DNA from: Lama guanicoe
Lineage: Eukaryota
Assembly (NCBI GenBank): GCA_013239625.1
Contig: MU053881.1
Location: forward strand, 4,423,957-4,487,956
Length of the DNA stretch: 64,000 nt
Direction of reading: 5' to 3'
Part shown: positions 1,198 to 37,814 of the stretch, one piece after another
How positions within the stretch are numbered: the first letter of the stretch is position 1
Layout: the number at the start of each line of letters is the position of its first letter
Notes under the pieces: model-generated
Told to the model about the DNA's origin: nothing
Database searches by the model: none
What the model saw: the letters and a program-made list of their open reading frames with translations, nothing else
Made by a program: the position numbers and the translations under genes

Positions 1198-1395
1198 AGC
1201 CATTTTGTGCCAGGCACGGTTGCTAGGAGACTTCACAAGCATAATTTCATTGAACCCTCACAGCAGGCCTGCGAGGCCAGTTTGATTTTGAGCAGTGTTT
1301 GGCAGATGAGAGAACCAAGGCTCAAAGAGATGGTGTGGGTGCCCGAGGACACCCTGTGGGTAAGCAGACCTGGGATTTGAGGCCAGGTGTTCTGA
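1198..1395 (-). mobile_element. MIR SINE
   Basis: 'tgtgccaggcac...cagatgagagaaccaaggctcaaagag...ctgggatttgaggccagg'. Confidence 0.8.
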
Positions 1396-1465
1396 GAGAA
1401 GGGAAGAGACTGGAGAGTCAGGAGAGAGATGGTACCGGGCTGCTGCAGGGGTAGGCGAGGGCTGC

Positions 1466-1951
1466 TGTGTTAGTTTCCTAGGGCTGCTGTAAAAACGGTC
1501 GCAAACCTAGTGGCCAGAACAATGCAGATGTAATACCTTACACTTCCGGAGGTCAGAAGCCCAAGTGGGTCTCACTGGGCTGCAATCAAGGCAGTGGCTG
1601 AGCTGTGTTCCTTCCGGAAGATTTAGGGGAGAATCCAATCCCTTTCTTTTCCAGTTCGTCAAGGTCACCTGTGTCTCTTCGCTTATGGCCTCTTCCTCCA
1701 TCTCCAAAGCCAGTAGCATAGCATCTTCTAACCTCTCTCTGACGCTCACTTTCTACCTCCTTCTTCCATATTTTAAGGACCCTTGTAATAACTAGGTCCA
1801 CCCCAAATAATTCAGGATCACCTCCCCAGCTCAAGATCCTTAACTTCATCACATCTGTAAAATCCCTTTTGCCACATAAGGCAATGTATTCATAAGTTTA
1901 GGGAACTGGGACATGGACATCTTTAGAGGGGACACTATTCTGGCTACCACA
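1466..1951 (-). mobile_element. MLT1D-type MaLR solo LTR
   Basis: Begins 'tgtgttagtttcctagggctgctgtaa' and ends 'ggacatggacatctttagaggggacactattctggctaccaca' (TG...CA termini); internal 'tcaagatccttaacttcatcacatctgtaaaatcccttttgcca'. Confidence 0.9.
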
Positions 1952-2329
1952 ACTTCCTTGGCCTGCTGTGGGCTCTGCCTCTGTTCTAGAGGTAGGGGTG
2001 AAGTCACTGGGCTGGAGTTGAGGGTAGGGATGGGGCTGGACTGGTGAGTGAAGGGAGGCCATGGAAACAGGTGTCCTTTAGGTTGGGCCACGGGCAGAAT
2101 CAAGGGATGATCTTCGCTGAGAGCCTCTGACCAAGACTTTACGGAAGTATATGTCATCTTTCAAGTCAGGGGTGATTCCTGCCCACTGAACCATGACAGG
2201 GGCCACATGGCAGGGCCCAGCCCCTCTCAGGGGTGTCATCCAGGTCTGTGTCACTGGGTGGGACAGAGAAGATCCCAGACAGGCAGGTGGAGTGGCCTGG
2301 TGGTTCATGTCTGGTCATGTTTGAACAGC

Positions 2330-2822
2330 GTGATCTTTCGACTTAGAAGTTCCATTCATAGGAGTTTTTCCTGCAACAAACTCAATCATTTGTGAAGTTA
2401 CGTGTACAATCTTAACATCTGCAAGATTATTTGTAAACTGGGAACAACCTGAATGACCATCAATAAGGAACCGTCTTGGTGGCTTAAGATTTCATACAAT
2501 GGAATCCTATGCTCTTTACACGCCATCATGAAAAAATTTCTCAAACAAAAAGTAAGGTACTTGATATTGTACACTACAGTGAATGCAAAAACAGGCAAAG
2601 GGAAAATATAAATACATATAGTACTTACAGGTGCACAAAACATCACTGGAGGAACGTACAGGGAACTGAGAGAACTGGCCACCTCCAGGGAGGCAAAGTG
2701 GGTCCCTAAGAGAGAGGGTGGAAGGAAGATTCCATGATTTACTCTTTCACACTTTTAAAATCTTGATCCATACGAGTGGGTTGTGGATCAATAAATTAAA
2801 AATTAAAACGTTATTTTTTAAA
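2330..2822 (+). mobile_element. L1ME-type 3' end
   Basis: 'gaacaacctgaatgaccatcaataagg', 'catacaatggaatcctatgc'; terminal 'aataaattaaaaattaaaa'. Confidence 0.75.
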
Positions 2823-3059
2823 TCCTATGAAATCACATGCTCACAGACTTACCTGACAGTCTGAGTTGGAAACAGCTTCAGCCATTTGACCCAAGCTGAT
2901 GTCCTTTGAGCATAAGCTCCTATCCATGGCCCCCCTTTAGGGGGTGGGATCCTAAGTGCTGGTTCCCCAGTACACTTTGCTAGCTTTCCTCCAGGCCTTT
3001 GCACACAACAGTTCCCCTATCTGAAGTACCCTACATCCCCCTCCCTGTACCCCTCCCAA

Positions 3060-3428
3060 TGACAATACCTGTGTTACTCCCCTTCCTGAGCACATAGCTG
3101 GACTACATTTCCCAGCAGCCATTGCAGCTAGCTGTGGCCAAGAGACGGAGTTCAGACCCATGAGTGAAGTATGTTGACATATCCAGGCTCGGCCTATTAA
3201 AACCTTCCATGCTCAGTCCTGCTCCACTTCCCCAACCACTCTCTGAAGAGAAGAGACTCCAAAGGCCTAGAGGAAGGTCCAGACAGAAGGAACCTGAGAC
3301 CCTGAATGACTGTGTGGAGCAGAGTCCCACCAACCTTTAGCACACTGTGACAGGAGCAGGAAACAGACTTGTATTAGCTTAAGTCACTAAGATTTGGGGT
3401 TATTACAGTAATTGGCCTTGACTAATAT
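3060..3428 (+). mobile_element. MLT1J-like MaLR LTR
   Basis: 'ctacatttcccagcagccattgcagctag', 'gaaggaacctgagaccctgaatgactgtgtggagcagag', end 'ttgactaatat'. Confidence 0.7.
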
Positions 3429-3859
3429 TCTAAATAACTCTGATTCATTCTTCAGGCTTAAATGCTACTGTGTCTTCTGGGCTGACCTCTTGTTTACCTT
3501 ACATGCCTGGAGGTGGGACCGAAAGATGGCTGGATGCAACCGCGGGGTGTGCCTGGGGCTTGGCCCGGATTCAGGCCAGAGACGGGCAGACAGACACCCA
3601 AACTGAAAATAATACACTTGGCTGTAATATCTAAGGGCCTACAGCAAAGTTCCTTGAAAAGTTTGATATTTGTAGCAAGAGGGATTTAGGGCTCCCTTGA
3701 GTCCAGTGACTGTGGCCGAATCACCAGCCCAGGTTCCTTTCCTAAGAGAGAGGCGACATCCCTTCTGGTACGGTTAGGTTATAAAGGCCACATGTGTTCT
3801 GCAAAAATGGTTTTTCTTTGAGGCTTGTCTTACGTTGGTGGCTTATAATGAATCAATCG

Positions 3860-4190
3860 TTAACTAATTTATTTGTTCACCTGACTTATTGAGCCCTTTC
3901 TGCAACAGGCTCTGGGCTGGGTTATAGAAACTAACGCCCAGCCACTACCCTCATGGGACTGACAGCCTCAGTGGAGAACCAGGTACCATTATAACGCAGG
4001 GTGCTGAGGGCTACAATGGGAGGACGAGCTTTCTCCATGGGGCTGCAGAACCTGAAGGAAGGGCCCTGAAATTTAGCCAAGGGGTCTGATCTGCAACCTT
4101 CAGGGAGAGTAGGAGTTACCCTGGAGAGGAGAAGGGAGGAGGGGACAGCATTTGGAAAGATGGAGAAGTGAAGAAGTGGAGAATGTTGGG
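3860..4190 (-). mobile_element. L2 3' end
   Basis: 'ttattgagccctttctgcaacaggctctgggctgg...ccctcatgggactgacag' antisense L2 tail. Confidence 0.6.
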
Positions 4191-4368
4191 TGGACTAAGT
4201 TTACCTGAGGTTAAACCTGCAAATATATCAAGGCACAATCAACCCAATAACATCCTACACTCCTCGACGTCCTGCTGTGTGCCAGGCATTGAGCCAGCCA
4301 CGAGTTAACCTTCACAAGAACTCTAGGAAGTAGGTACTAATGTTCTCTCTATCTTATGGCTGCATTAA

Positions 4369-4758
4369 TGCTATGGACTGAATTGTGTCCCCTCTAAATT
4401 CATGTTGAAGCCCTAACCCCCAGTTTGACTGGACTGGGAGATAGGGCTTTGGGGAGGTAATTAAGTTTAAACGAGATCATAGGCTGGGACTCAAATCCAA
4501 TAGGACTGGTGGCCTCATAAGAAGAGGAAGAGATCATAGCTCTCCACGTGTACACACCAAGGAAAAGTGATAAGAGGACATGGTGAGAAGGCGGCCACCT
4601 GCCATGTGAGCCAGCAAGAGAGCTCTCACCAGAAGCTGAACCCTGCTGGACATTGATCTTGAAATTTCCAGCCTCCAGAACTGCGAGAAAATATATTTGT
4701 ATTGTTTACACCAGCCAGTCTATGGTATTTGTTACAGCAGCCTGAGCTGACTAATACA
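4369..4758 (+). mobile_element. MLT1A-type MaLR solo LTR
   Basis: 'tgctatggactgaattgtgtcccctctaaattcatgttgaagccctaaccccc' ... 'ctatggtatttgttacagcagcctgagctgactaataca'. Confidence 0.9.
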
Positions 4759-4824
4759 ATCAGCATCATTTTGATTTTCATTACCATCGTCATCATTGTT
4801 GGTTTAGTAGACATTTCTTTTTTG

Positions 4825-4925
4825 TTCCTTCCAATTTTATTGAGATACAATTGACACACAGCACTGAATAAGTTAAAGGTGCACAACATAATGATTTGAC
4901 TTACATATATCATGAAATGATCACT
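4825..4925 (-). mobile_element. L1MA-type 3' terminus
   Basis: 'ttttattgagatacaattgacacacagcactgaataagttaaaggtgcacaacataatgatttga'. Confidence 0.75.
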
Positions 4926-4941
4926 TTTACTGAGCTCCAGA

Positions 4942-5108
4942 CCTCAAAGTCCACAAATAACAAATATTGACAAGGATGTGGAGAAAAGGGAACCCTTGTA
5001 TGCTGTTGGTGGGAATGTAACTTGGTGCAACCACTATAGAAAACAGAATGGAGATTCCTCAAAAAACTATGAATCGAGCTACCATAAGATCCAGCAATCC
5101 CATGCTTG
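4942..5108 (+). mobile_element. L1 ORF2 C-terminal fragment
   Basis: 'gacaaggatgtggagaaaagggaaccc...gatccagcaatccca'. Confidence 0.85.
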
Positions 5109-5414
5109 GTACGAGGCCAACAGGCTGTGGATCTCCTCAAGTCCGTTTCACCAGCTAGACCCTATATTGAAACCTCGAAGCCTCTCCGAGGGTCTGATTC
5201 TTGGCTGAAACCCCAGCTTCTGGGACAGGACCAGGCACAGAATAAGCACACCCATGTTCAATGAATGGACAGATGAGATCGGAAGAGTACATGTTTCCTT
5301 CTGTTCCTGAACTCTAAGCCCAGCTTGGGTTTGAGTAAAGCAAAATGTAGTGAAAGAGCAAATTTCTCTCTGTGTTTTTCTTTTATTACTGCCTAATGTT
5401 CCCTTTTGTGTAAT

Positions 5415-5830
5415 CATCCATCCATTCATTTGTTCCATGCACTCATTTACTCAATTGATTACACAATTACAAGCACCCATTCTGGGAATTACCAGGAAGA
5501 GCAAGTAGAGACTCTGTCTTCCAAGAGCTCACAGCCGAGTCAAGGAGTCAGGGCGTGGTGGAGGGCAGAAAAGATGGGAGAGACAGTTACAGATAGTTCC
5601 CATACAATGTGGCAGGATGGTATAAAAAGTATAAGCAAATTACCGTTGGGGTACCAAGGACAAAATAACTAACTGCTTGGGAAGTCAGGGAAGGCTTCAC
5701 GGAGGAGGTTACACTTAAGCTGGGCCTTGGAGGATCAATAGAAGTTTGCTAAGCAAGTCATGTAGGAGATCAGTGATCTGGGTAGAGGGGCTCGCACGTG
5801 CAAAGCACATCAATGTGAAAGGCCTATTTA
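5415..5830 (-). mobile_element. L2 3' region
   Basis: 'catccattcattt', 'gtcagggaaggcttcacggaggaggt...agctgggccttggagga'. Confidence 0.7.
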
Positions 5831-5884
5831 GGGAGGAACAGGAGGGGACCAGGCTAAAGAAAACACTAGTAGCTGTCACTCACT

Positions 5885-6065
5885 GTTCAGAGTGATATTC
5901 GTCCACGTGTTTGCATCAATTTAATTTTCACAACAAGCTGCAGAAGTACCTTATGGTTGGAGAATTTGAGACTCAGAACAGTGAAATCACTTGCCAAAGG
6001 TCACACAAGCTGGTAAGAGGCAGAGCCAGGACTCAGATCAAGTCTGCCTGGCTCTGGGACCCTGG
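5885..6065 (-). mobile_element. MIR SINE
   Basis: 'acttgccaaaggtcacacaagctggtaagaggcagagccaggactc'. Confidence 0.8.
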
Positions 6066-6754
6066 ACTCCTCTGTCTCAGGCTGAGATGTTAGGATGGGG
6101 ACAGTCATGGAACCCTATGGAACCCCAGCGTGTTCCCGAATCTGCAGTGAGGTGGCCTGCAGCCTGGTGGAGTTATTTTCAGTTATTTTCCAGGACCCTT
6201 TCCTTTGCGCTCAATGTCAGGACTGAAGTCTTGGGCCCTTGTGTGACAGGACCCTCCTTGGCATCCTTCTCTCCATCCATCCAAGTCACACAGGCCTTGT
6301 CTCAGTTAACCTTGCATTAAGGAAGGCCATGCTGAGAACCGACACGGCCTCATCTCCAAAGATGTCCCTGTGCACAGGGCTGAGTTCTCATCAACAAGAA
6401 AATGGCCCCGACAGAGGCGGGAAGCTGGGGGTGCTGGCCGGCACGTTCTCCGAAACCAGGCAGCTGTCTAATTACAGGCCGGCTCTGTAATGAGAGGCAG
6501 GCGGTCTGGATAACAAGGAGTGGCCCCGGGGCTGAGGCGGACCAGTGTCCAGGCCTGCAGGAGGCCTTCACGGGGGCCACCAGCTCAGCGTCCAGCTGGC
6601 TGCAGACCACACACATGTCGGCCCTACAGAGGATGAAGGGAAGGTGGGAAAGGGAACCATGCTGAACGCTGGCCCTGGGCCAGATGCTAAGCTGGACGTC
6701 TACCTCCACATTCTCAGGTGATCCCCCAGCCACCTAGAGAAACAGGTGTAACTG

Positions 6755-6865
6755 ACTCCATTTTACAGAGGAGAAAATGAAGGCTCCCAGAAGCGAAACA
6801 AATTGCTCAGACACCTAAGAGTGGTGGACGGAGGATCCAAACTCCAGTCTGGGTGAATCCAAAAG
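6755..6865 (-). mobile_element. MIR SINE fragment
   Basis: 'ccattttacagaggagaaaatgaaggctc'. Confidence 0.7.
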
Positions 6866-7107
6866 CTGGTTTCCTTCCCAGGAGGAAATGAAGGAAAAGG
6901 TGAGTCTACGCTGGATCTGAGAAACTGTGAGGAACTGGGGTCGGGGGAACAACAGAGAAGCAAAAAGCGGACATGAGGTTGGCTGTCAGCCCGTTGGGGA
7001 GCCCCCCAGTGCATGTGGGACAGGAGCCCGGGGCACCTGGACGGTAAAACACCTGGTGACATCAGAAGGCTGAGTGGTTTGGTTATAAACTGGGGAGTCG
7101 TATTTCT

Positions 7108-7335
7108 CTTTTTTATTGAGGTATAGTAGGTTTGCAATGTCGTGTTAACTTCTGGTGTGCAGCATACTGACTCATTTATACACATATATATTCCTTTTCA
7201 TGTTCTTTTTCATTATAGGCCATTACAAGTTATTGAATATAGTTCCCTGTGCCCTACAGTAGGACCTTGTTTATCTATTTATATATAGTAGTTTGTATCT
7301 GCAAATCCCAAACCCCCAATTTATCCTTCCTCACG
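7108..7335 (-). mobile_element. Artiodactyl/camelid-type L1 3' end
   Basis: 'ttttattgaggtatagt...ttctggtgtgcagcat...attgaatatagttccctgtgccctacagtaggaccttg'. Confidence 0.85.
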
Positions 7336-7944
7336 CTTTTCTTTCTTTGATTTCTTCCCTTGCTTCTCTTTGGAGGCATAAACCCCTAGGAAAGCAAACT
7401 TCCCCATAACCCCCTGAACCGGGCTGAGCTCCCCTCTGACCATCCTCAGAAAGCTTCTCCGGCATGTGCCATCCTCCTTGGAAGGTCCAGGTGGCTCTTT
7501 AGGAAGAGACCCATGCTTTCCCCTGGGGCCTTGGGGCCTGTTCAGCAGAAATCTCAGTCGTCAGCGGCTTGGTTACATCTGCGTAGGCCGAGCAGCTATG
7601 ACTAACCTCCCAGAGCAAATGCGGCCCCCGTGGTGCACAAAAGCGGCCCCCACAGCCCCTCTCGGCAGCATCACCTGCTCCTGATTCAGCACAGGGCCTG
7701 CCGGGGGGAGGGGGGCTGCGGGTGCAGCTGCTCTCCTGGGCTCAGATCGCCGCAGGAGCACCAAGCTCTGGCTGGAGTCTGGGTCTCCCAGCCTGGCAGG
7801 ACTCGTCACAGCACTCTCTGGGTGAGTTCTGGGGCTCAGGAGAGAGCTAGAGAGCTTCCCGCTTGTAAAACGCCCATGCACAGCCAGGAAGCATCTCCCT
7901 GTGTCCAAGATGCTCCCCTGCCTATTCCAGTGACCTGGCAGCGT

Positions 7945-8285
7945 GAGCAAAGGTTGGAGCACAAGAGACCGAGTTTCACATCCTGGCTTTGCAACTTCTT
8001 AGCTGAGTGACCGTTGGCATTTGATGTCATCTCTGGGAGCCGCAGCATCCTCAGGTGTAAACTGGGGGTGATAACCGTTACCCATCACATTTGTACACAA
8101 TAGTGCTGTGAAGTCATGTAAGACCTCAGGCTCCGGAAGAAGAGGTCTTGATGCAAATCCTCGCTCAGCTGCCCGCCAGAAGTGCCATCTTGGGTGCCTT
8201 GTTTGCCCTCGCTAAGCCTCAGTTTCCTCATCTGCAAAATGGGGATAATGAGAGCCTCTAATCCACAGGCTTGTGGTAAAGACCA
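7945..8285 (+). mobile_element. Two MIR fragments
   Basis: 'agctgagtgaccgttggca'; 'agcctcagtttcctcatctgcaaaatggggataat'. Confidence 0.7.
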
Positions 8286-9929
8286 AACATGACCCAAAGT
8301 GTTCCCTCCACCATTATCAGCTCTTCTCTGGGCACTTACTCAGGGCTCACCCCGAGGTGCAAACGCCCTAAAGATGCCTGGGCTACTTGCCTTTTCCTTT
8401 TTTGGGGGGAACACCATCCATTCAGACACACAAGAATTTTCTTTCATCATCCAGGAATCAGAAAAGATGCTGTCATGTTAACTGCAAAACAGCTCTCTTT
8501 CCACAAAGGGAAATTTCCATGACAGGAGCTAAGGAAACACACCAACAGGGCAGGGCCCTCTGTCTGCATCATGAAGGCTGGTGTAAGAGCTGAACTCACT
8601 CATGTCTATACGTATAGATGTCACACAGTAGGTCTGCACACCTCAGGGTGGCTGGCGAGGGTGATGCATGTTTCCACTTCCACTCAAGGACTGTGTTTCT
8701 TTCACTGTACCAACAGATTGGCTGTATGTAGGACAGCCCTCCACCGCCCCAAAAAGCAGGTGGTGAGGTTGAAGGTTTGGAAGATGTTGCCATTAAAAGA
8801 GACTGGAAGGGCCTTGTGTGTTTTGATCTCAGAGGCTTAGATCGTATCTTGTCAGCCCTGTGGCCACTTTCGCCTTGTGCGAAGGCAGAAGCAGCTGGCA
8901 TCGCCATGGCAACCAGGCAGCATCAACTTTCCAATTCACCCCTGAATTTTCTATAACAAAGGCAGAGCCAGTGAAAACATGTTTGGGAAGTGAGAGCCAC
9001 GAACAGAAAATCACACCAGGGAGCTGCAGGGAGCTGAAAAGGAGGGGCGGTCATGTTTCCAACATTTTCGGTTAACCAAAAACGCAGCGAAAAGACATGA
9101 GATCAACCCCCATTCAGGCCGAGAGAAAGAAACGTTCCTAAGACTTCCTGAGATCCCAAGCACAGGGACTGCTTTTTCCAGTAAGATCACAGGCACTCAC
9201 TGTTGTCTGCCAAGCTCCGGGTTAGATGCTGGAGTGAGAAGAAGGCGATGAGAGAAGAGAATGGGACCAGGTGATCGGTGGGATGCAAGTACCTGGAACC
9301 CAGATCGGAGAGGACTTCACGAAAGAGAGGTCCTCGGAAGATTTTTGAGATCCAGATTCTCAGAAGATTCATCAGGACACAAGCTGAGGATGGGGGTGGG
9401 CCAGGGATGGGGTAGGCCAGGCTGGGCTGGTGGGGAGCAGAGAAATTCGGGCTGACTCTCAGAGCACAGCTCTGGGGGGCCAGGCACAATTAGCCACAGG
9501 TGGTGGGGAGGGCAGGCGACGGAAGCCAGGTCAGTGAGCTGAACAACTAGTTCTGGGCCTTGGGGATGCCAACGGGAGCCTCCCTGGGTTGGTGGCCGCC
9601 TGGAGCACAATGATGAATTCTTACTATGACCCTGCTTGATTATATTTAGTTGTTGGGCAACTACAGGCAAACAGGCCAGACACCTGAGGAACAGCAACCT
9701 TAAAGACAAGAGGTCCTACGGGAAGCTGAGAGTAGGTGAGCTCCCCCAGGAGAAGAGCCTGCGATGGGCCCTGGGGGGACCACCTTGGGAAACGAAGAGA
9801 CAGGAGCCAGCCAGAGGGAGGAAAGAGGCCTGGCGGCAACTCCACACACATCCCACCAGTAGCGCGGGCTCATTCCTGAGAAGCCTGACCCCTCTGCTCA
9901 GGAGTGGCGAGTGCAGCTCCCTCACACCC

Positions 9930-11090
9930 GCCTTGTGCCCTTGGGTGTGACTTCTCTGAGCCAAGCTTCCTTATCTGTAAATTGTGGGTAGGATCTGCCA
10001 CCCCACGGAATTACCGTAAAGATCAGATGGGGCTATAATTGCTAAACGTGAGGCACATAATAGATGTTTAATAAACTGCTTGGACTGCCTGTTGGCAGCT
10101 GCCTGGTGTTGGAGCACACGCCCCTGCCTGCCCTGAGTGTGGGGAGGAGCACGCTGGTCTTTTCCTCCTCTAAGAGCAGCCATTGCTGGGCTCTCCCTGT
10201 GAGCCAAGAGCTTTTCTAATTGCTTTACACTCACTCCTCAAACAGCCCTGGGGGTCGCACTGGGATTGTTACCTCTATTTCACAGATGAAGAAACTGAGG
10301 CTCAGGGACGTATACAAAGGCACACAGCTCTGAAGTGTTGGAGCTGAGCTGCTGGACTGGGAACCTGTTCAGCTCTGCTCGGCCACCCCATGATGTTTGG
10401 CACCAGACCCTGAGCTCCCTGAGGGCAGGCAGGGCCCTCACTGACAATCTAACCTGAGGGGAGCGACAGATGCTCTATAGAGAATTCAAACAGCGCACCT
10501 GGAGACAGCGGGACTCCACCCTGCCTCTGGGTCCTCAGCGCATCTTCTCATAGCACCGAGGCTCCAGGGTTGAGCAGTCACTCTGGAACAACAAGCAAAG
10601 TGATCTGACAGACAAGAGGCAGAGTTCGCTGAGGCCAGATCGCCAGATGGACCCAGAGCCAGATGCTGGGCTGTGAATGCTGAACCCATCACTTACTAAC
10701 TCTGGGGGCTTTGGGCAAGTTACTTCACCTCTCTTGGCTCAGAGACCTCAAATATAAGGCAGATCACGAAAATATCAACCACACACAGTTGGTTATTTAC
10801 AGGTAAAGCCTGGTACATAGGGAGTGCCCAATCAATGTCACTCATCTTCAGATGAGGTGCTGAGGCCTAGAAATGAAAGACAACAGCTACCACTTATTAG
10901 GCATCGGAGATGTTCCAGGCCCTTTCTCTGCATTATATTCACAGACTCTCACCACCCGCCTGGGAGGCAGGGATCATTATTCCCCGTGACTGACAGATGA
11001 AGAAGTTAAGGGACGGAGAGGGCAAGGAAGGACTCCAGGTCACAGAGCTGAATGGCAAAGGCAAGACTTCCCTTTGTCTCTGACTCGAAA
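9930..11090. mobile_element. Cluster of four MIRs in alternating orientation (+ ~9930-10085, - ~10220-10365, + ~10670-10840, - ~10885-11090)
   Basis: MIR cores 'ctctgagccaagcttccttatctgtaaa', 'cagatgaagaaactgaggctcag', 'tgggcaagttacttcacctctct', 'cagatgaagaagttaag...ggtcacagagct'. Confidence 0.75.
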
Positions 11091-11220
11091 CTCCACACCC
11101 TCTCCTGCCCTCAGTGCATCCTGGAATGTTGAAGGGGAGCACAGACCTGTTCCTCAGATGGGAGAGAACACAAACCAGGGCAGAGGAGTGTGATGACTCT
11201 CATTCAAAATTCTAATTCAA

Positions 11221-11368
11221 ACAGATACATGCACCCCAAGGTTCATAGCAGCACTATTTACAATAGCTAAGACACAGAAGCAACCTAAATGTCCACCAAC
11301 AGATGACTGGATAAAGACAATGTGGTCTATTTATACAATGAAATACTACTCAGCCATTAAAAAGAATG
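11221..11368 (+). mobile_element. Isolated L1 ORF2-end fragment with no 3' UTR or poly(A)
   Basis: 'gatacatgcacccc...gcagcactatttacaatagctaagac...gcaacctaaatgtcca...tactcagccattaaaaagaatg'. Confidence 0.85.
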
Positions 11369-11599
11369 TTTTATACATGCATTGACAGGTCCTGAAGCCA
11401 AACTGCAAAGCTATCCCATAGGCATGGGGTCTTATCCTATTCCCAAAGTATTTCAAGTCCTTGGAAGCTAATTTCAACTTCAGTATGAGTTTAATAGTGT
11501 CCATAGGAGCCCCTGGACACTGAAACACGTTTGGGGCCCAATCAGATAAACCTCTGAAGAAAATTCAAGCATTTGGACAGCAGATCAGGTGTAATCAAT

Positions 11600-11950
11600 A
11601 ACCATGATCCTACCCACCGGGCACCACTCTCATTTCCTGAGAAGAACTCTGCCCTTACTCCAACCACCAGACCTCTCTCTGAAGAGGCCATGTTTTCTAT
11701 GACCCTGCTCCCCAACCTCTGTTGACTGGTCCAAACTGAGCCAATCGTGATACCCTCCTACCTCAGGCAGTTTTGATTGGCCCCATCCAGACCAATCAGA
11801 GACATTGTCTAGGACTTTTTGAATGGGAACTGAGGGAAGAGGATAGTCCCTCTCTGGTGACATGATGTGCAAAATGTTCCATTCAAGAATCAAGAGGTCG
11901 CAGATTCTCAGATATTTGACAGCTGAGACAACCTGCTGCTTTGTGTCCCT
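11600..11950. mobile_element. Old ERVL/MaLR LTR remnant (LTR16 or MLT1K/L-like)
   Basis: 'gactggtccaaactgagccaatc', 'gaccaatcagagac...ggacttttt' resemble these LTRs; subfamily uncertain. Confidence 0.45.
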
Positions 11951-12279
11951 GAGGACTCGTGAGGCTGGTGGCAGGAGAGTGGGGTAGAGGGGTGGGGGGT
12001 GGTCTTCTGTGGCTGCACTGTTCCGCACTACAGCCTGCTTCTCCCGGGGATTTCTCCATGGAAATGCTGCCCTCACGGGGGCCAGGCTCACTTTGGCCCC
12101 ACAATGCCCTCCAAAGGTCTTACTCCTCATCCTTTCTCTGGCCTGAGCCTTGCCCAGCTGGGCCTGGAATGGCGAACCCCAGAATTCCTGGCCGAGCGCG
12201 GAGCCCTTCTGCTGTCATCCGAAATTCACCCAGAGAGACCTCCCACCCACATCTGCTCCCTCCCCTCCAGGGGGCCGGG

Positions 12280-16180: not shown

Positions 16181-16187
16181 CGTGCAC

Positions 16188-25695: not shown

Positions 25696-26822
25696 TTTTT
25701 ATTTTTAACTGAAGTATAGTTGATGTGCACTAATATTATATGTTACAGGGGTACAATTTAGTGATTCACAATTTTTAAAGGTTATACTACATTTATAATT
25801 ATTATAAAACATTGGCACAGGGAGGGTATCTCTGTGGTAGAATGCATGCTTAACATGCACAGGGTCCTGGGTTCAATCCCCAGTGTCTCCATTAAAAAAA
25901 ATTTTTTTTTAAACAATGGCTATATTCTCCACATTGTATAATATATCCTTGTGGCTTATTTTATACCTAGTAGTTTGTGCCTCCCACTCTCTCATCCCTA
26001 TATTGCTCCCCGCTCCCGCCCCTGCGGACCACTAGTTTATTCTCTGTATCTGTGAGTCTGCTTCTTTTTTGTTATATTCACTAGTTTGTTGTATTTTTTA
26101 GATTCCACATATAAGTAATATCATACAGTATTTGTCTTTCTCTGTCTTTTTTCCCTTAGCGTAATACCCTCCAAGTCCACCCATGTTGCTATAAATGGCA
26201 TTATTTCATTCTTTTTTATGGCTGAGTAGTATTCTATGTATATATATACCACAGCCCCTCTATTCATTCACCTGTCGATGGACACTTACGCTGCTTCCAT
26301 ACCAAGGCTACTATAAATTGTGCTGCTACGAACATTGGGATGCATGTATCTTTTCGAATTATTTTTTTTTCCTTCGGATGTATACCCAGGAGTGGAATTG
26401 CTGGGTCCTGTAGTAGTTCCATTTGTAGGAGTTTGAGAAGCCTCCATCCTGTCGTCCACAGTGGCTGCACCAATTCACATTCCCATCAGCAATGTGCAAG
26501 GGTTCCCTTTTCTCCACATCCCTGCCAACATTTGTTATTTGTGTTCCTTTCGATGATAGCCACTGTGACCGATGTGAGGTGATACCTCATTGCGGCTTTG
26601 ATTTGCATCTCCCTGGTGATTGGCGATGCCGAGCATCTTTTCATGTGCCTGTCGGCTATCTGCATTTCCTCTTTGGAAAAAATGTCTATGGAATTGTTCT
26701 GCCCATTTCTTAATCAGATTGTTTTTGGGTTTTTTTTTTTTTGATGCTGAGTGGTATGAGCTGTTTATATATAATGAATATTAACCCTAATCAGTCATAT
26801 CTTTTGCAAATATTTTTTCCTA
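25696..26822 (-). mobile_element. Younger ~1.1 kb 5'-truncated L1 (3' UTR and ORF2 end)
   Basis: 'tttttaactgaagtatagttgat', 'ttagattccacatataag', 'ggagtggaattgctgggtc', 'tctccacatccctgccaacattt'. Confidence 0.9.
25819..25909 (+). mobile_element. Camelid tRNA-derived SINE (Vic-1 type) nested in L1
   Basis: 'gggagggtat...gtggtagaatgcatgcttaacatgcacagggtcctgggttcaatccccagtgtctccattaaaaaaaa'; TSD-like aaacattggc / aaacaatggc. Confidence 0.85.
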
Positions 26823-27520: not shown

Positions 27521-29719
27521 CCTACCACTCTGCTAGCCTATCTCCCAAAAGATGGAGAGACCCAACCTTGCCCATTTGTGAATCCATCAGCATTCTTTGA
27601 CTCGGAAAAAAAAAAAAGGAAGAGAAAGAAAAAAAGAAACAGAATTCAAATGGATGAACATAAGCAAAAAGGGAGACTTAGTGGATGACAAAAATAAATC
27701 CAGAAAAGACAGGTAGGAAGCAGACACCAGGGCCCACTGGGGGCAGGGAGGCAAACACGCGCAGAAACCTCTCCATCCCCGCCTTGACATCTCTGGATGC
27801 GCTGCCTCTGTGAGGGGGCAGGAACGCGGCTGCCTACAGCTTTCCCTTTGCTTCTAACACATCCACCCACTCCTGCTAAAAAACGAAAGCTAAACAAATA
27901 GATAAACCAAACAGGGAAGGATGCTCATTAGCTCCACCTGGGCCTCCGTCCCTTCCTGGAGCGACACAGTAACCCGGGGAGGCTGGGTGCTGGCGTTGGT
28001 GCAGGGAGGATCACGGGGTGCAGCCCACAACCACAGGAAGGGGCCCGAGTGCGGGCGGGGCAACTGGGCCACAACGCTGGCGTCACGGACTACCGGCGCC
28101 CTGTCCGTGCCCAGCGATGGGAGAAGACTTGGCGGTCCCGGCCATCCCTCTGGACATTCATCACCGCACAGCCAGCTCCTCCTTCCTGAGCGAGGCCTGG
28201 GTCCTCACGCAGGATTCAACTAGACTGAAAATTCCCCTTTTAATAGCTTTCTATTCAGCATTCAGGGAAAAGAACTTTCATCCTGGTTTTTTTAACCAAC
28301 AAAAGCCTTCTTTCATACACCTCACCCATGCAGGGCCCTGGGACCAGCAGAAGCATGGACATTATCCAGGGCTCAGGGGAGCCGCAGAGCCTCAGGAGTG
28401 GGGTGGGGGTCCCCTCCTGGCCTGCTGCTTACAAGCGCTGCAATCTGGGGTGCCACTCACCCCGGCCATGCTGGGGAGGCAAGTGTACGGCCTCATCCTC
28501 AGGAGAGTTGCCTCAGTGCACAGGGAAGGGAAGCAGAAAGCCGGGCAGGGGATGCATGAGTTGACATGAGAAAATCCTGTGTGGGCTGGCCTGGCCCCTC
28601 ACTGCCCATCTGAGGGCACCCAACCTGCAGCCAGCCCTGCGCTCTGGCCACCCCTGTGGACCCCGGCAAAGATCTGAGGTGTCCTCAGTGAAACCAGGTC
28701 AGAAAGCATTCGAGAAGCAATTTGGGGAGTCCGGCAGACACAAATATGGACAGCAGAACAAAGCAGACCTGTCGGCCAAGGAAATTCAATCCACTTACAC
28801 CCAGGAGCTCCCTTGTGCCGGAGAAGAAAGGGCGCTTTCACGGGCCTGGCCCTGGCTGCTGGCAAAATGGGTCCTGCAGGTGCCCTGCCCTCTCTCCAAG
28901 CACCTGCCCCTGGGATCTGCCGGCCCCCCAGCCTGGGGGTGGATGTGGGGAAGGGACCCCCTCCTTGGGCCACAGAGGAGACGGGAGGGGAAGAGGGGCA
29001 CAGGAAAAGCCCCGGGCAGTGAGTGGCTTCAAGGTTAAGGTTCTGGAGATAAAAAAAGACAATGTGTGTTTGTCATGGAAATTGGCTCATGGACAGATTA
29101 AATTTAGGAGTGACTGGGGCAGATACGCAGAGAAGCATGTTTCCTTAATGAGCCGTCTTTATTTAACTGCTTAATCATTTACTGGGCAAAAAAATCTGGA
29201 GGTGACTTCAAAAGTCACGAGGATGAAGACAGTGACTAATTGTACACTGTCAAGCGGCTTCAGGGCCCAGCTCCCGTGACATCGCCTTGTCACCCCGATG
29301 GGGTGAGGATGGGCTGCCCTGACCCCCAGGGGAACCCACATGTGGCCCGGCTGTTAGGCTGGGGAACAACTGTCTTGGCCATTTCCGTTTCCTGACAGGG
29401 AGGTGATGGGGAGGGGCGGAGCTGATGTGGGTGGGGCTTCCTCCTCTGGCCCTGACCCTACCTCCCGCCAACCTCCTGTGTTCCTTCACTTCTCAGCCAG
29501 CCATCCGTTCATGCATTCATTCAACAAAGTGGTTTCAAGCAACCAATATATGTCCTGAAGCACGGTGTTGAAAAAGTCCATTGTGGGAGTTGCTTTCTTG
29601 AAGCTTCTTTACAGCCCGGCGGCAGAGGCAGGCTTGGATCCAGGGAGCCCAGAATTGTATCGTTACACACCACCATCAGGGCACTGAAGAAAGAGTGAAG
29701 AAACCTGGGTCCAGAGGGA

Positions 29720-30700: not shown

Positions 30701-31275
30701 CCATGAATTCAGTAGTCATTATTCCAAGTGCAGGGAGCTCCAGAGGACACCAGTAACAGTCCTTGGGAGACAAGAAGTCACAGCCCAGAGTCAGCAGGTC
30801 AGCAAGTCACCCTGTGCTGCATGGCGCGCATGGGACGGCAGCAGTGGGAACCCCACGGGGTACGTTCCAGGGGAGAAGGGGACCTGGGATCTTGATGCTG
30901 TTCAGAAGCCGGAGGCGTCAGCCCAGGAAGCAGGGTGACTGATCTGGAAGTCACTCACGTGGGGCACTGTCGACCAAGCCCAGGCTGAGCCGAGGTGCAG
31001 GCTGTTCTAGGTGTTACAAAGTTTTATAGAGCTAAGAAGGGAGGCAGGGCCTAATCGATTTCAGTTAACCCTTCAGGAATTTCAGGTTATCTGTTTTTTC
31101 GTTTTTTCTTTGAAGGAGCTAATTAAAGCATTTGGTAGGTGATTCCAAATGCATGTTTCCCTCTTCCTCCTAAAAGCAGGAGCAAGAGGACTTCCAAAGG
31201 GCTAAACGTCATTCGCCATGTGAGGACGTGAAAACAAGAAACATCTGCGACCATCACAGGGCAGCACGACCTCCT

Positions 31276-31480
31276 CAGTGCTGTCCTGCTGGACTCCGCC
31301 ACGGGGGACATGTCCCCTGCCTGCCCTGTCCAATGTGGTAGCCACAGGCCACACGTGTCTGTCAAGCACTGGAAATGTGGCTGCCACACCAGAGAAACTG
31401 CATGCGTCATTGTAATTTAAATAAATCAGGTTAATTAAATAGCCACATGTGCCGAATGGCTCCGTCTTCGGACAGGGCAG
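31276..31480. mobile_element. MER3 (hAT-Charlie MITE)
   Basis: 'cagtgctgtcc', 'ctgtccaatgtggtagccacaggccacacgtg', 'aaatagccacatgtg...ggacagggcag'. Confidence 0.85.
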
Positions 31481-32029
31481 ACTTAGACATATCCCTTCTG
31501 AGGGCTGAAACCTCTCTCCCTTTTAGTCCAAATTCTTATTCTCACCAAAGTAGCCATGACAGCACCTCAGCTCCCCAGGACGGTCCCCTGTCACGAGCCT
31601 TTCACGCCTGCCAAATTGGCAGAAACCATGGGAAGGATGGGCTGGGAGAGGCCTCAGAGGAGGACCCCTATGGCCCAGAGAGGAAAGGTGACTTTCCCAA
31701 GGTCTCCCAGCCTCTCAGGGGCCAAATGGGATGGGATCTGAGGCCCCCGTTCTCAGAAGGTGGTCCTGCTGGGAACTTTGAGCTGTAACATATAAACATT
31801 CACCGTCAACAAACAAACATATATATCAAGGCCCAGCCATACGGCAGACCCTGTGCCAGCCTTGGGGACACAGTATTAAACACAGCAGATGGGACCCCTT
31901 CCTGCTCCCTCCACAGGTCCCAGCCCAGAAAACAATATTTCTCTTCCAGGAGACCAACAACTGCTCAGCAGCATTTTAAGGAAGGGGAGAGGGAGGATGC
32001 AGTCGGAGGAGTGGACAGAGGCCTGGGTT

Positions 32030-32140
32030 TGAGGTTAGCCAGCCTCACTTCTAAATCCTTGCTCTGTCCCAAATGGGTGACATTTGGCAGAAGCCCTTCT
32101 GAGCCTCAGTTTGTGCGTCTGTAAAATGGGAATGATGGGA
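32030..32140 (+). mobile_element. MIR fragment
   Basis: 'tctgagcctcagtttgtgcgtctgtaaaatgggaatgat'. Confidence 0.75.
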
Positions 32141-32946
32141 ACGTTGCATCTTCTCTATGACAGGGCATGGGGTCTGTGCCCAGCCTGGGGTGATGCTCTG
32201 TGATCGACGGTTTCCTTTTCCTTCACCTGGTGGAAATGTGAAGGGTGGGGAGGGGAGGTTGATCGGGGATTTATCTGGCTGGCCAGCCTGGGCAGACTTT
32301 GATCACAAGAGAAGGAAGGAAGGGCCTGTAATTGATTGTCACCAGGTTCCCTTCAGAGCATGCAACACTCTAGATGGTGGAATGGAAGGAAACAGACCCC
32401 CTCTGCCCTGAGCCTCCCGGCTCCTCATTTGCCCCAGGTTCTGGCCCTTTAGGCTGCCTATCCCTGCTTGGGGTTCCTCTGTGCAAGCACGAGTCAGCTT
32501 CAAGGGGGGATCCAAGCCAGCCCTCAGAAAGGCCAGGCCAGCCTGCGCACATGGCCACTCCTCGGGAGCCCACCATGGCCCAAGCCAAGGCCTGCAGGAG
32601 AATGTGGGCGACCTCCTGGGGCCACAACAGAGACGGCTCCTTAGAAGCAGCACTGACACAGTTCTCTGTGTTCTTTCTGGTGGAGGCAAAATCAAAATGT
32701 AACATCCGCCTCACCGAGGCCACATCTTTGGTTGGCAAATCAAAGACATGGGCTGAGTCCTGGCTCTGTGACCTTCCTGAAATGGACAAGTTGCCTCTTT
32801 TCCAGTCCCACATCCTAGCTAGGAGCCTTTAGGAAAAGTAAATTCAGCTGTCCAAGCCTCAGTTTCCTCTTCAGAAAAAAATGGGGATGAAAATATGTGC
32901 CTCTTACACTTGGGTAGTACAGGCTTACAGCACGTATTCCCTAGAC

Positions 32947-33134
32947 CAGCGGTTCTCAAAGTGGGGTCCTTGGACCTGGAGCATCAGCCACACCTGGGAA
33001 CTTGCTAGAAATGCAAATTCTTGGGTTCTACCCCAGATCTATTGCATCATAACTCGAAATCGGGTCTAGCAATCTGTGAGTTTTAACAAGATCTCCAGGG
33101 GTTTCTGAAACTTGCTCACGTTTTCAAGGCCCTG
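32947..33134. mobile_element. MER5A (hAT-Charlie MITE)
   Basis: 'cagcggttctcaaagtggggtcc...cacctgggaacttgctagaaatgcaaattcttggg...ttttaacaagatctccagg'. Confidence 0.9.
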
Positions 33135-33219
33135 CGCTAAGTGGTAGCTGTCTGGGGGGCCTCCGATGTTCTCAGAATCCCCTCTAGCTCCTGGTCTGAC
33201 CGTAGCTGTCCAAGGCTAG

Positions 33220-33430
33220 GGCATGGGGATCAAACAGAGCTGGGAGAGGTCCTGGTGCCTGCACTTCTAGCCTGTGGCTTTAGGCAAGCTGGTGGCTCTC
33301 TCTGAGCCTCAGTTTCCTAATCTTTGAAATGGGAGTGACGCCTGTCTGGCAGTTTGCCACAAGGTGCTGGATGTAATTATCTCAGTGCCGGGAACACAGG
33401 AAGAGCTCAGGAACGGGTAGTTACTATTGT
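33220..33430 (+). mobile_element. MIR SINE
   Basis: 'ctctctgagcctcagtttcctaatctttgaaatggg'. Confidence 0.75.
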
Positions 33431-34149
33431 TGTTGGTTTTCTTCTTAAACAATCAGATTCCAGGGATTTTTGTTCTTAAAAAGGGTCAAGTTTCCCTGGC
33501 ATGAATCCCCGCCCACCCTGCCATCATTCCCCAAATAAGGATCCCATACGGACTGGTGAGTAAATTGCCAAAGGGCCCTCTGCTACCCATCAGAAGAACC
33601 CTTTCCGCGTCTGAATGAGGCAGAGGATTTCAATTACCCAGGACTACAAAGGAGGACCTCGGATGCACCATATGGCCTGGGCCTGGCCGCCCCGACGTTC
33701 TGCATGATTGGAGGCTCTTGTGTGAGATATTAACATAATATCCCTTCCAAAAGCGATTACAGAGTTGCAGGCAGCAGAATGTCATTTGGTGGCCGCAGTC
33801 CGCTCTCATCAGCAGCAATGACTAAACAAGCTAATCAAATCAGCACAAATTTGCACACGGGCCTGGCAGCTGGGCCTGAAATCACTGTGGCAAAGGCATA
33901 ATCCTACCGTCGGGTGACTTAACTAATGGGCTCCCGGTGGGCTGCCTGGCAGTCTGTAGGGTGAGGGCGGTTGCACCCACAGACAGCCAGGGCCAGGGTC
34001 CCGGAAGGGACGGAGGCCAGGTTAGCAAACAGCAAACAGAGGGAGAGGAGCACGAAGGGCTGGAACCTTTCATCAGCGTCTCCAACCTCACCATGTGCCT
34101 GTGTGTGTGGAGAGGGAGGGACAGAGAGACACTGGCTGCCACATGCACC

Positions 34150-34290
34150 GAGAATATGGGCTCCAGAGGCTGCCTTGGTTCCCGTTTTAGTTCTGTCATT
34201 TGCTGTGTGCCCCTGAGCAAGATGCTTACCATCTCTGAGCTCAGTGTCATTCATAAAATGGGGATACCCAGTGAGTGTTCAGTAAAAGCA
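34150..34290 (+). mobile_element. MIR fragment
   Basis: 'gctgtgtgcccctgagcaagatgcttaccatctctgagctcagt...aaaatggggata'. Confidence 0.75.
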
Positions 34291-34291
34291 A

Positions 34292-34305
34292 TTGTTGTTT
34301 TGTTG

Positions 34306-34354
<49 letters not shown>
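34292..34354. repeat. Compound (TTG)n(TTA)~15 microsatellite
   Basis: Uninterrupted tta run at ~34309-34353, preceded by ttg units. Confidence 0.95.
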
Positions 34355-34356
<2 letters not shown>

Positions 34357-34640
34357 TGTTCAACAAACTTCACGTGGGCCTTCTAAATGCCAGGCTCTAG
34401 ACTCTGGGAATGCCAAGTTAAGGATACCACTGCCCTTCCTTCAAGGGGTGCATAATGTAACAGGGGCAATGGCTGAGTAACTAGACAGTGACAGTATCCC
34501 ATGACAAGTGCTGTGACAGAAAGAGCATGTGGCTGAGAGCACAGAGCAGGGGCACTCAGCCTCGGGGACCCGAGAAATTATCCGAGAAGAGATGGTACTC
34601 CAGCTGAGCTGGGGAAGGTGGGCCTGGGGTTACGCAGGAG
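34355..34640 (-). mobile_element. L2 3' end
   Basis: 'ttcaacaaact...aatgccaggctct...atgacaagtgctgtgacaga'. Confidence 0.65.
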
Positions 34641-35030
34641 AATGACAACAGAGGCAGGGCCGGGAAGTCAGAGACACGGCCGCCTGGCCAGGCGTCAGGG
34701 GTCTCCCGAGGGGCAGACAGACACCTGCTGCCCAGATCAGCCCGGCGGGGAAATCTGCCCAGAGGCGGGGGGCTTCTCAAGTCTGAGACAAGATCAGAAG
34801 GTACAGCCACGTCCAAGGAGGCTGGCATAAACGGACACACGCTATGGGAGAACTCCATCCACCACATCTTGGTCTCCAGGCTTATAAACAATAGAGGAAG
34901 CCAAGGGACGCTGTCAGATAGCCACAGGAGAGAAAAGTGGTCGGAAGTTGCCTGCTCGCCCCGCCTTGCTGCCTGCCTCTGGGCAAAACCCTTCTCAGCT
35001 TCCATCAACAGCGCTGGAGGGTCGCTGGCT

Positions 35031-35559
35031 CAGTGCCTCCCGCCTTCAGTCACCTCCCTTCTGCTTCAAAAGTTGCCACACCCACGAAACCCTGCGTGAT
35101 TACTGACTTAATATTTGTCCCTAAAACAGAGGCACTCCCTTTTGAAAACATACTTGCTAATTTAAACAAAAACTTTCTAACACTACCGTAACTGAGAAGC
35201 CAGTACCTCTGGCCACTGATAGAAGAGAAGCCATAGACCACACAAGGTGACACATCCCTCGTTAGACGCTGTCACTTCCTGAAGACTCCGGGCCTCAGTT
35301 CTGGGGTGAGCGGCTGGGAGGAGATTAGCAGGTGTTCCGGGAGGTGTTTAAGACAGCCCAGCACCAAGGTGAGACTTTACCAAGCTGAGGCTCTCTCCCG
35401 ACATAATCACAAGGGTTGAAGGAGACCGGAAAGGGAATCCATGCCTCGTTGGTTAATTCAATGTCATTGAGTACCAGGTATGTGTCATTCAGTACCTGTT
35501 CCACCAGGGAGGTGGCGCACACACTTGGTACTAACTGCCCTGTTCTTTGGGAAACGCTG
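35031..35559. mobile_element. hAT-Charlie non-autonomous element (MER113-like)
   Basis: Degenerate termini 'cagtgcctccc' ... 'tttgggaaacgctg'; internal 'acactaccgtaactgagaagccagtacc', 'gagattagcaggtgtt', 'cagcaccaaggtgagacttt'. Confidence 0.55.
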
Positions 35560-35569
35560 GCCCCAATAA

Positions 35570-36260
35570 TCTCAAAAGCTGTTTCCAGCTATAAAACACT
35601 TCAATGCTGTGACTGTCTCGACTCCACAGGACAGGTACAGGTGACCAGACAGGAACCACCGGGCCACACCCCCGTCCTCCCTACTCCCACCCAGTGACGC
35701 AGACCTGGACAAGCCCCCTGAAAGGGGCCGTGCCCAGCCGGTGGCCCCGGTGTGATTCAGCAGCGGGCAGGAACCACCTCGCCCTCAGAGGATGGCAGTG
35801 CCCAGGATGCCCTCCTCGGGGTCTTGTTCAGAGACCTCTCAGGGAGGATCATCCGTGCCCCCTCCCGTGGGCCCACCTCAGACACCCGTTTCCATGGCCT
35901 CCCTTCGTCCACAGGCCCAGCCTCACCCCTACATTCAACTCCAGCCCACTGCCTTCACCCCTAAGCCCAGACCAGAGGCAGAGCCCAAAGGAGCCGAAGG
36001 CAGCCCTGGCCTGCCCGTGCAGCATCCCTGACCTGCCTCCCTCCTGACTCCCCCCTGACTCCCCAGCTACTCCCCTCTCCCACAAGACCTGGTTTCAAGT
36101 TCTCGCCCTGCCACCTGCCTGCTGGGGTCTTGGACGGCACACTTACCCCTCGGAACATCAGCTACCTCATCAGTAGTCAGAGTTATAACTAACCTCATAA
36201 GGTTATTTCAAGAGTCAAGTGAAATAAAGTTAACAAACACACCAAAATGCTGCTCAGCAG
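35570..36260. repeat. Arm B of the ancient inverted duplication (uninterrupted; empty MLT1D and L1ME sites)
   Basis: Reverse-complement homolog of ~1200-1465, ~1952-2320 and ~2823-2880. Confidence 0.9.
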
Positions 36261-37810: not shown

Positions 37811-37814
37811 GCTT

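Follow-up and report, generated by a model that had tools for sequence, protein, structure and literature searches.

A decayed inverted duplication with an in-register MIR junction in Lama guanicoe

The window (the whole stretch of Lama guanicoe DNA that was analysed, 64,000 nucleotides) contains two stretches of about 450 bases each that are true copies of each other, one inverted with respect to the other at a distance of ~34 kb. Rather than a conserved functional element, they resemble the worn trace that old DNA-repair copying would leave after starting inside a common repeat. On balance, and judging from the sequence, we lean towards reading the pair as a neutral relic: a copying event would have linked two unrelated MIRs in register.

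Arrangement of the arms and their MIR junction

A blastn comparison of positions 1000-2700 with the window paired 1953-2317 with the minus strand of 36003-35642 at 272 identities in 377 columns (72.1%, 27 gap columns, E 1e-56). A collinear second block of 112 columns paired 1364-1465 with the minus strand of 36111-36000 at 66.1% identity (E 4e-8). This arm pair ranked first among the 12 non-self pairs of a whole-window self-BLAST, at 212 bits against 139 bits for the runner-up, and an nhmmer profile built from the arms matched 36092-35642 at 460 bits. No homology, including residual older homology, was detected past 1364-2317 and 35642-36111. The arms are thus two collinear copies of unique DNA with a similarity far above chance. 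The inverted homology described in the earlier note was confirmed, and its hand counts were exact (91/110 for 1966-2075 against 35881-35990, and 46/55 for 2209-2263 against 35685-35739). The features are listed below.

1253..1381, minus strand: MIR-type SINE body beside arm A (iterative nhmmer profile positions 3-134, 73.2 bits), outside the paralogous segment; we take its sense strand from the MIR consensus
1382..1465, no strand assigned: left piece of arm A, a putative MIR-head end plus a purine-rich linker, paralogous to 36000-36092 (75% over 84 aligned bases)
1466..1952, plus strand: dispersed LTR-like repeat inside arm A, with many genomic copies
1953..2317, no strand assigned: right piece of arm A, the core, pairing with 36003-35642 (77.5% over 346 aligned bases)
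35642..36092, no strand assigned: arm B, unbroken (core, linker and putative MIR-head end), inverted relative to arm A
36091..36217, plus strand: MIR-type SINE body beside arm B (nhmmer profile positions 2-137, 56.6 bits)

The repeat that splits arm A is 487 bp long, begins with TG and finishes with CA in the manner of a solo LTR, and presumably belongs to MaLR/MLT1. Once it was excised, the two pieces of arm A and arm B aligned seamlessly. The LTR-like insertion must be younger than the duplication. The earlier description of arm A lacked this insert between its two pieces.

Both MIRs adjoin the core in one orientation and register, with profile matches ending at positions 134 and 137 of 137, in agreement with the earlier observation that the junction between arm and MIR is the same on the two sides. 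The MIRs had been described as paralogous and more diverged than the core. Their divergence is real (54.4-55.6% identity between the MIR bodies, with 55.6% as the value set against 77% in the homologous segment), but their paralogy was not supported, for their identity of 62/114 (54.4%) is that of random MIR pairs in the window (53.7 ± 4.8%; rank 40 of 97). Nor was there an excess of shared non-consensus states, which amounted to 7 of 114 in the two bodies and to 5.1 ± 2.4% in other MIR pairs, 27% of which shared as many or more. Since the MIR bodies are no closer than random pairs, they need not be paralogous, and paralogy can begin inside the MIR. At both loci the breakpoint falls within one repeat family, in matched orientation and register, and the repeats beyond the junction behave as independent copies.

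The maximum-likelihood change point in identity was located at 1383/36092, corresponding to profile position ~136 in both arms, with ~56% identity (55.9%) on its left side and 77.2% on its right. Its likelihood ratio was attained in 0 of 500 permutations. The support interval (1358-1443, 85 bases) spans the expected MIR 5' end, so that the position alone is compatible with a neutral MIR beside a constrained non-MIR element; any junction microhomology is hidden within it by the ~23% divergence accumulated since the event. By eye, the MIR-head segment showed 18/22 identities in the insert-free arm alignment and shared 4 of 13 non-consensus bases when set against an empirical head consensus, a thin indication that the MIR head may lie on the paralogous side.

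Divergence of the arms and signs of constraint

The homologous segment showed a uniform identity of 77% over 430 aligned bases. The best 110-base window (92/110) had a permutation P of 0.50 and the best 55-base window a P of 0.73, and the unexpectedly good preservation formerly attributed to the core was therefore not borne out. Gaps made up 7.0% of the arm alignment and 5.4-6.3% of alignments between pairs of the LTR-like family made with the same aligner. The ten gap runs measured 10, 4, 2, 1, 1, 1, 8, 2, 1 and 11 bases. The transversion distance between the arms was 0.139, against 0.119 in the LTR-like family pairs. Substitution and indel rates were thus not below neutral, apart from a somewhat low JC distance of 0.276 (0.335 in the LTR-like family pairs). 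This value is also smaller than twice the terminal branch of the inserted LTR-like copy (2 x 0.177 in pairwise and 2 x 0.22 in multiple alignment). Because the insertion must postdate the duplication, it amounts to a 20-35% shortfall in transitions, which could stem from mild constraint or from a slower rate in arm B. The shortfall is attributed here, though not proved, to the fast decay of CpG-rich LTRs and to subfamily structure.

Base composition differed between the arms. A/T in arm A faced G/C in arm B at 52 sites, the converse holding at 22; arm A contained 5 CpG and arm B 14, with 1 in common, and the GC content was 0.58 in arm A and 0.66 in arm B. Because arm A has drifted toward A+T, arm B may have been the donor, although this is a guess. 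The sequencing runs that were found were near-identical to the window (word shares of 0.85-0.91), and metagenome scans found nothing.

It is unlikely that the arms are paralogous functional non-coding elements such as shadow enhancers. Such an origin would require a MIR-age duplication including the whole MIR, after which the MIRs decayed neutrally to the random-pair level and selection kept the linker and core at 77%. The sharp and significant identity step at the MIR edge fits this account, as do the arm JC distance below twice the LTR terminal branch (0.35-0.44), the 14 CpG kept in arm B and its GC content of 0.66, and the 32 MIR profile matches with few close repeat pairs in the 64 kb; dense MIRs with few close repeat pairs are typical of regulatory landscapes. 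However, the identity is uniform and lacks conserved blocks, indels, some of them 8-11 bases long, are no sparser than in neutral repeat copies, there is no reduction in the transversion distance, a 487-bp insertion was tolerated in arm A, and the A+T drift and CpG loss of that arm are ordinary. The duplication would also be needed almost right after the MIR insertion, yet the by-eye head segment suggests that derived changes were already shared. There is a similarly small chance, as the sequence stands, that weak purifying selection acts on the linker and core as an ancient duplicate pair of regulatory or RNA-pairing elements that co-opted the MIR head; in that case, the transition deficit against the inserted LTR-like copy and the CpG retention of arm B would genuinely reflect constraint.

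Homogenisation was also weighed. An older duplication including the MIR could have been followed much later by a single gene-conversion tract (~1383 to 2317) confined to the linker and core, which it made alike again, a course of events that we consider quite unlikely. It predicts the same identity step and the same in-register MIRs as the neutral relic does, and inverted repeats on one chromosome are known conversion substrates. Nevertheless, it invokes two events where one is enough, and by the time assigned to the conversion the identity of the arms would have dropped to only about two-thirds, far under what mammalian conversion tolerates. In addition, the longest identical run between the arms was 19 bases, no long identity marking a recent tract was found, and older residual homology was undetected outside the tract. 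With indels and transversions at neutral levels, a large insertion tolerated in arm A and no recent conversion tract, the earlier proposal that the core is constrained or homogenised remained unsupported, and we infer that both copies decayed approximately neutrally.

Copy number, coding potential and RNA pairing

When either arm was used as the query in a DNA search of the animal's own 2.05-Gb assembly, 2 candidates were obtained, and on scoring they were the query and the other arm. The 487-bp insert served as a positive control and yielded 2005 first-look candidates, 40 of which were scored and showed 67-79% identity. Because insert copies at ~70% identity were recovered, the search is able to detect copies at the level of divergence that separates the arms. 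Within the reach of this search, a dispersed transposon family was rejected as the source of the core, in which the earlier note, too, had recognised no repeat family. The two-copy search results and the shared MIR junction likewise favour the earlier proposal, a local and inverted duplication that gave two copies of non-repeat DNA, over two independent transposon insertions.

The search misses families of MIR age, as two MIR queries recovered only themselves, plus 5 short matches for the MIR beside arm B. This blindness leaves some room for the arms being the two remaining members of a very old, low-copy interspersed repeat that has escaped recognition, which we regard as very unlikely. Members of MIR age would be expected to be ~55% identical, not 77%. 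A search for a 25-mer conserved between the arms, allowing at most 3 mismatches, matched the arms and 1 other site, against 1 match for a reversed-pattern control, and the extra site had no wider similarity to the arms. The arm profile found nothing beyond the arms in 181,307 bases of sampled genome. Furthermore, independent insertions would not each adjoin a MIR at a matching position and orientation.

None of the 368 ORFs of at least 70 aa, those of the arms included, reached the Pfam cut-off. Mismatches were spread over the codon positions as 4/7/8, and none of the 10 gap runs was a multiple of 3. A pair of protein-coding exons was rejected on the gap runs and the lack of Pfam matches for the arm ORFs. 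A structured RNA gene was rejected as well, with 0 Rfam matches in the window and arms that folded no better than shuffles (z of +0.49, +0.16, +0.18 and +1.22, all positive).

A long-range RNA duplex within one transcript, closing a 33-kb loop for back-splicing, editing or splicing control, appears highly improbable. Pairing between the arms would be extensive: 82-84% of the 346 aligned positions are pairable (268 Watson-Crick plus 17 G-U on the plus strand or 21 G-U on the minus strand), the longest uninterrupted helix was computed at 25-26 bp, and the duplex energy (-497/-517 kcal/mol) was about twice that of shuffles (~-230 kcal/mol). Inverted MIRs have been shown to drive ciRS-7 back-splicing, according to a passage of PMC7371899. 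Common descent alone, however, yields such complementarity, and no exon was recognised between or around the arms among ORFs of at least 70 aa compared with Pfam. The best helix is slightly under the 30-40 nt of complementarity that the same passage cites for efficient back-splicing, and the 32 MIRs of the window, present in both orientations, would compete as partners.

Proposed origin and relation to known systems

For the neutral relic, the following course is proposed. A single copying event would have placed about 450 bp of unique DNA (linker and core), inverted, at a site 34 kb off. One junction would have formed within a MIR and lined up in register with another MIR that already stood at the other site, as break repair or a replication template switch primed on the diverged repeat and then copied the unique flank of the donor. 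The far end (2317/35642) would have been sealed without homology, and the product would be a chimeric MIR. Later, the LTR-like element would have entered arm A, and both copies would have decayed about neutrally to 77%. The absence of any other visible function in the Rfam, folding and Pfam analyses was counted in favour of this neutral origin, whereas MIRs of ~66% identity are poor substrates for homologous repair, which counts against it.

Chimeric Alu/Alu junctions are known from repeat-mediated rearrangements. As in those, the breakpoint here lies inside an interspersed repeat, in register with a copy of the same family, and a chimeric repeat was apparently left. Unlike young Alus, which are ~85% identical, the MIR and its partner would have shared only about two-thirds of their bases at the event; the copied piece is ~0.45 kb long, inverted and probably of roughly early-placental-radiation age, and the junction microhomology is no longer readable. 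Alu enrichment at segmental-duplication boundaries is described in bioRxiv 10.1101/2025.07.09.663898. The proposed course also resembles templated insertion by coupled double-strand-break repair (one-ended invasion, copying and end joining), with one homology-guided junction, one junction without homology and a short piece of nearby DNA (34 kb) copied; the general mechanism of coupled homologous and non-homologous repair is reviewed in PMC7407515. Here, the scar from which the mechanism is inferred is tens of millions of years old, and the same pattern would result from a replication template switch (FoSTeS/MMBIR).

Like ciRS-7/CDR1as, as described in part in PMC7371899, the pair consists of old, inverted and complementary mammalian non-coding sequences with MIRs at the site. 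In ciRS-7, by the same description, it is the MIRs that pair; they lie on either side of a circularised exon, within a few kb, and have been conserved in human and mouse alike. The complementary part here, by contrast, is non-MIR DNA, its arms are 33 kb apart, and no exon was recognised near them in the comparison of ORFs with Pfam. With shadow enhancers the arms share the presence of two related non-coding elements in one locus, but their substitution and indel patterns are without sign of constraint.

If orthologues showed constraint, the pair would become candidate duplicated regulatory elements. These results mainly call for caution, since flanking repeats that are more diverged than a core need not mean selection and may be unrelated copies that guided a copying event. 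The case also shows that even MIRs, old and diverged as they are, can be found marking a junction in a small duplication, which adds a little to the existing knowledge on Alu and L1.

Extent and copy number of the inverted pair

The window consists of non-coding DNA of mammalian type, from an assembly of 2.05 Gb. Comparison of positions 1000-2700 with the window by blastn gave two collinear inverted matches, one between 1953-2317 and 36003-35642 (72.1% of 377 columns, with 272 identities and 27 gap columns, E 1e-56) and the other between 1364-1465 and 36111-36000 (66.1% of 112 columns, E 4e-8). The inverted pair described from the sequence in the earlier note was thus confirmed, and its hand counts (91/110 and 46/55) proved exact on recount. 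No other of the 12 non-self pairs within the window was as strong. Excision of positions 1466-1952 produced a seamless alignment of the left copy to the uninterrupted right copy, and the homology ended on either side, so the duplicated unit is about 450 bp long.

1382-1465 and 1953-2317: arm A, the left copy in two parts, the second of which is the core
1466-1952: insert, an LTR-like dispersed repeat that splits arm A
36092-35642: arm B, the uninterrupted copy in the opposite orientation, 34 kb away

Homology past the unit was not found on either side in comparisons that included one of 1-19000 against 19001-45000 in inverted orientation. A large palindrome was rejected, as the 27 inverted matches in this comparison comprised the two arm blocks and short or other-repeat matches, none of which lengthened the arms. 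Overlap with matches of the MIR profile leads us to regard many of them as MIR-MIR pairs, a reading checked for part of them. Searches with the far-junction flanks (2318-3000 and 35000-35641) each returned the query alone, including the sequence from 2318 onward, which may be L1-like.

When either arm was searched against the animal's own genome, two candidates were obtained, namely the query and the other arm. Very common words are passed over in this search, and very old families escape it. The 487-bp insert, used as the positive control, gave 2005 first-look candidates and 40 scored copies that were 67-79% identical to it, so a family with members as alike as the two arms would show. A 25-mer conserved in both arms matched, with at most three mismatches, the arms and one other site, around which no wider similarity to the arms was found; the reversed 25-mer gave one match as a control. 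An nhmmer profile of the arms had no further match in 181,307 bases of window and sampled loci. Exact metagenome scans with a 25-mer of each arm gave 0 matches and were uninformative. The core, which had been matched to no repeat family in the earlier note, is therefore no dispersed repeat as far as the own-genome, 25-mer and profile searches reach, and the two genomic copies in collinear inverted blocks support its reading as a local duplication.

The insert starts with TG, ends with CA and is a member of an old dispersed family; we take it to resemble a MaLR (MLT1-type) solo LTR. Its presence in arm A only places its entry after the duplication. The window is old, little-disturbed DNA, and all of its non-self BLAST pairs were below 79% identity except one short 53-column match. 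Another old repeat had three copies, 77-78% identical, at 26207-26543, 4952-5111 and 11206-11368, and parts of it also matched at 43084-43301 and 59885-59937.

MIR copies at the junction

An iterative nhmmer profile seeded on the arm A flank converged at 137 positions, with a consensus that we take to be the MIR core. It had 37 matches, and the 32 of them within the 64 kb of the window, on both strands, represent an unusually dense occurrence of MIR-type repeats. Two of the copies adjoin the arms.

1253-1381: MIR copy beside arm A, profile positions 3-134 (nhmmer)
36217-36091: MIR copy beside arm B, profile positions 2-137 (nhmmer)

The two share one orientation relative to the core and stop at the same point of the profile, which bears out the earlier observation that the two arms meet a MIR at the same junction. 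Used as own-genome queries, the MIR pieces gave only self-matches, together with five short matches (33-44 bases) for the MIR of arm B. A CATT/CACT-rich low-complexity run lies at the far end of this MIR (36260-36300), and its motif recurs almost exactly, over 33-44 bases, at five further sites in the genome.

The two MIR bodies, outside the paralogous segment, were identical at 62/114 profile columns (54.4%), against a mean of 53.7 ± 4.8% for 97 pairs among 15 near-full copies, where the pair ranked 40th. They had common non-consensus states at 7/114 columns; other pairs had 5.1 ± 2.4%, and 27% of pairs had as many or more. Identity to the majority consensus was 66% for each of them and 69% for other copies. 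Local-alignment distances of MIR copies were set aside, as the filter lets through the best-matching pieces alone. Given this random-pair identity and the lack of excess in common non-consensus states, the bodies look like independent MIR copies and need not be paralogous, as they had been described.

A two-rate change-point fit across 1200-2317 located an identity step at 1383/36092 (2-lnL support interval 1358-1443), with 55.9% identity on its left and 77.2% on its right. The likelihood ratio of 25.7 was reached by 0 of 500 permutations. The step falls at profile position ~136 in both arms, which puts it in register within the MIR, close to the head. To the right of the step, 18 of the first 22 bases were identical by eye, and relative to an empirical head consensus of 19 copies the arms had in common 4/13 non-consensus bases and a 1-base deletion. 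These data suggest, on small numbers and with a support interval that includes the expected MIR end, that the head end of the MIR belongs to the paralogous part. The chance of a breakpoint in a same-orientation MIR at most 10 bases from the same position was estimated at ~0.5% (32 copies x 20 bases x 0.5 / 64,000).

Divergence of the arms and search for functional signals

The 430 aligned bases to the right of the step had an even identity of 77.0%, and the longest identical run was 19 bases. The best 110-base window contained 92 matches (permutation P = 0.50) and the best 55-base window 48 (P = 0.73), so the 110-base core that had appeared unexpectedly well preserved is not special. The arms and pairs of the LTR-like family were compared with one aligner throughout.

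Divergence of the arms and of LTR-like family pairs
JC distance: arms 0.276; family pairs 0.335
Transversion distance: arms 0.139; family pairs 0.119
ts/tv: arms 0.9; family pairs 1.56
Gap fraction: arms 7.0%; family pairs 5.4-6.3%

Because the duplication is older than the insertion, the distance between the arms must, under neutrality, be no less than twice the insert branch. The terminal branch of the insert was 0.177 JC and 0.06 by transversions in a star-tree estimate; multiple alignment gave larger values (0.41 against other copies, terminal branch 0.22). The arm distance reached twice this branch in transversions (0.139 vs 0.12) and fell below it over all substitutions (0.276 vs 0.35-0.44). 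The deficit is one of transitions, and fast-decaying CpG-rich LTRs and subfamily structure within the family would yield it.

Indels were not depleted in the arms, with 10 gap runs of 10, 4, 2, 1, 1, 1, 8, 2, 1 and 11 bases, 0/10 divisible by 3. The linker between MIR and core in arm B (36040-36075) contains, by eye, a direct 10-base tandem repeat (GGGGAGTCAG-like unit) present as one copy in arm A; this repeat explains the gap of 10 bases and resembles a product of replication slippage that followed the duplication. Compared with arm B, arm A has drifted to A+T (52 sites vs 22), and CpGs numbered 5 in arm A and 14 in arm B, with 1 in common. At 0.33, the CpG o/e of arm B is level with the 0.31 of the window as a whole, so the arm does not form an island.

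A history in which selection acted after an older duplication would look the same, and the sequence comparison leaves room for mild constraint on the homologous part; the even identity, undepleted indels, A+T drift and CpG counts point instead to plain decay, and we consider selection unlikely. Slightly less likely still is an older duplication with a later conversion tract, which would also give this picture. Plain decay thus appears sufficient, and the proposal of a constrained or homogenised core is unsupported.

None of the 368 stop-to-stop ORFs (≥70 aa, whole window) reached the Pfam cut-off, and three sub-threshold matches (PF11591, PF11915 and PF15840) were taken as chance. Rfam families had 0 matches within the window, and folding better than shuffles was not found for either arm on either strand (z +0.16 to +1.22). 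Arms in one transcript could, by computation, pair at 82-84% of 346 positions, a capacity that follows from common descent. Their longest clean helix of 25-26 bp is slightly short of the 30-40 nt of complementarity needed for efficient back-splicing, as cited in PMC7371899. Fifteen DNA runs with three coded organism labels contained 0.85-0.91 of the sampled words; being near-identical to the window, they are without cross-species power. Two RNA-seq runs (X16 and X17) contained ~0.12 of the sampled words of 31000-40999, part of which may be transcribed, although word share alone is no evidence of expression. Three weak, small CpG-island-like patches lie between the arms (12171-12630, 18281-18580 and 27941-28280; GC 0.56-0.61, CpG o/e 0.62-0.69), with no recognised coding exon in their vicinity.

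Proposed history of the duplication

The simplest account, which would need no selection, begins with two unrelated MIRs in opposite orientation 34 kb apart. A break or stalled fork at one MIR would have primed in register on the other, copying would have run through the MIR end into ~450 bp of unique flank, and the ends would have been sealed without homology at 2317 / 35642. The LTR-like element would later have entered arm A, and both copies would have decayed at a roughly neutral rate. Such MIR-primed copying would produce in-register MIRs, MIR bodies at random-level identity, a sharp step and an even 77% identity. With MIR pairs at JC ~0.72 (54% identity) as the scale and MIRs ~130 My old according to PMC7371899, the duplication would very roughly be 50-70 My old, an order of magnitude only.

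Chimeric Alu/Alu repeats are well known. Repeats at duplication junctions are also well known for Alu, and enrichment of Alu at segmental-duplication boundaries is reported in a preprint (bioRxiv 10.1101/2025.07.09.663898). Templated insertion in error-prone break repair is treated in a review (PMC7407515). The present pair would be a small, old and MIR-based instance of this kind.
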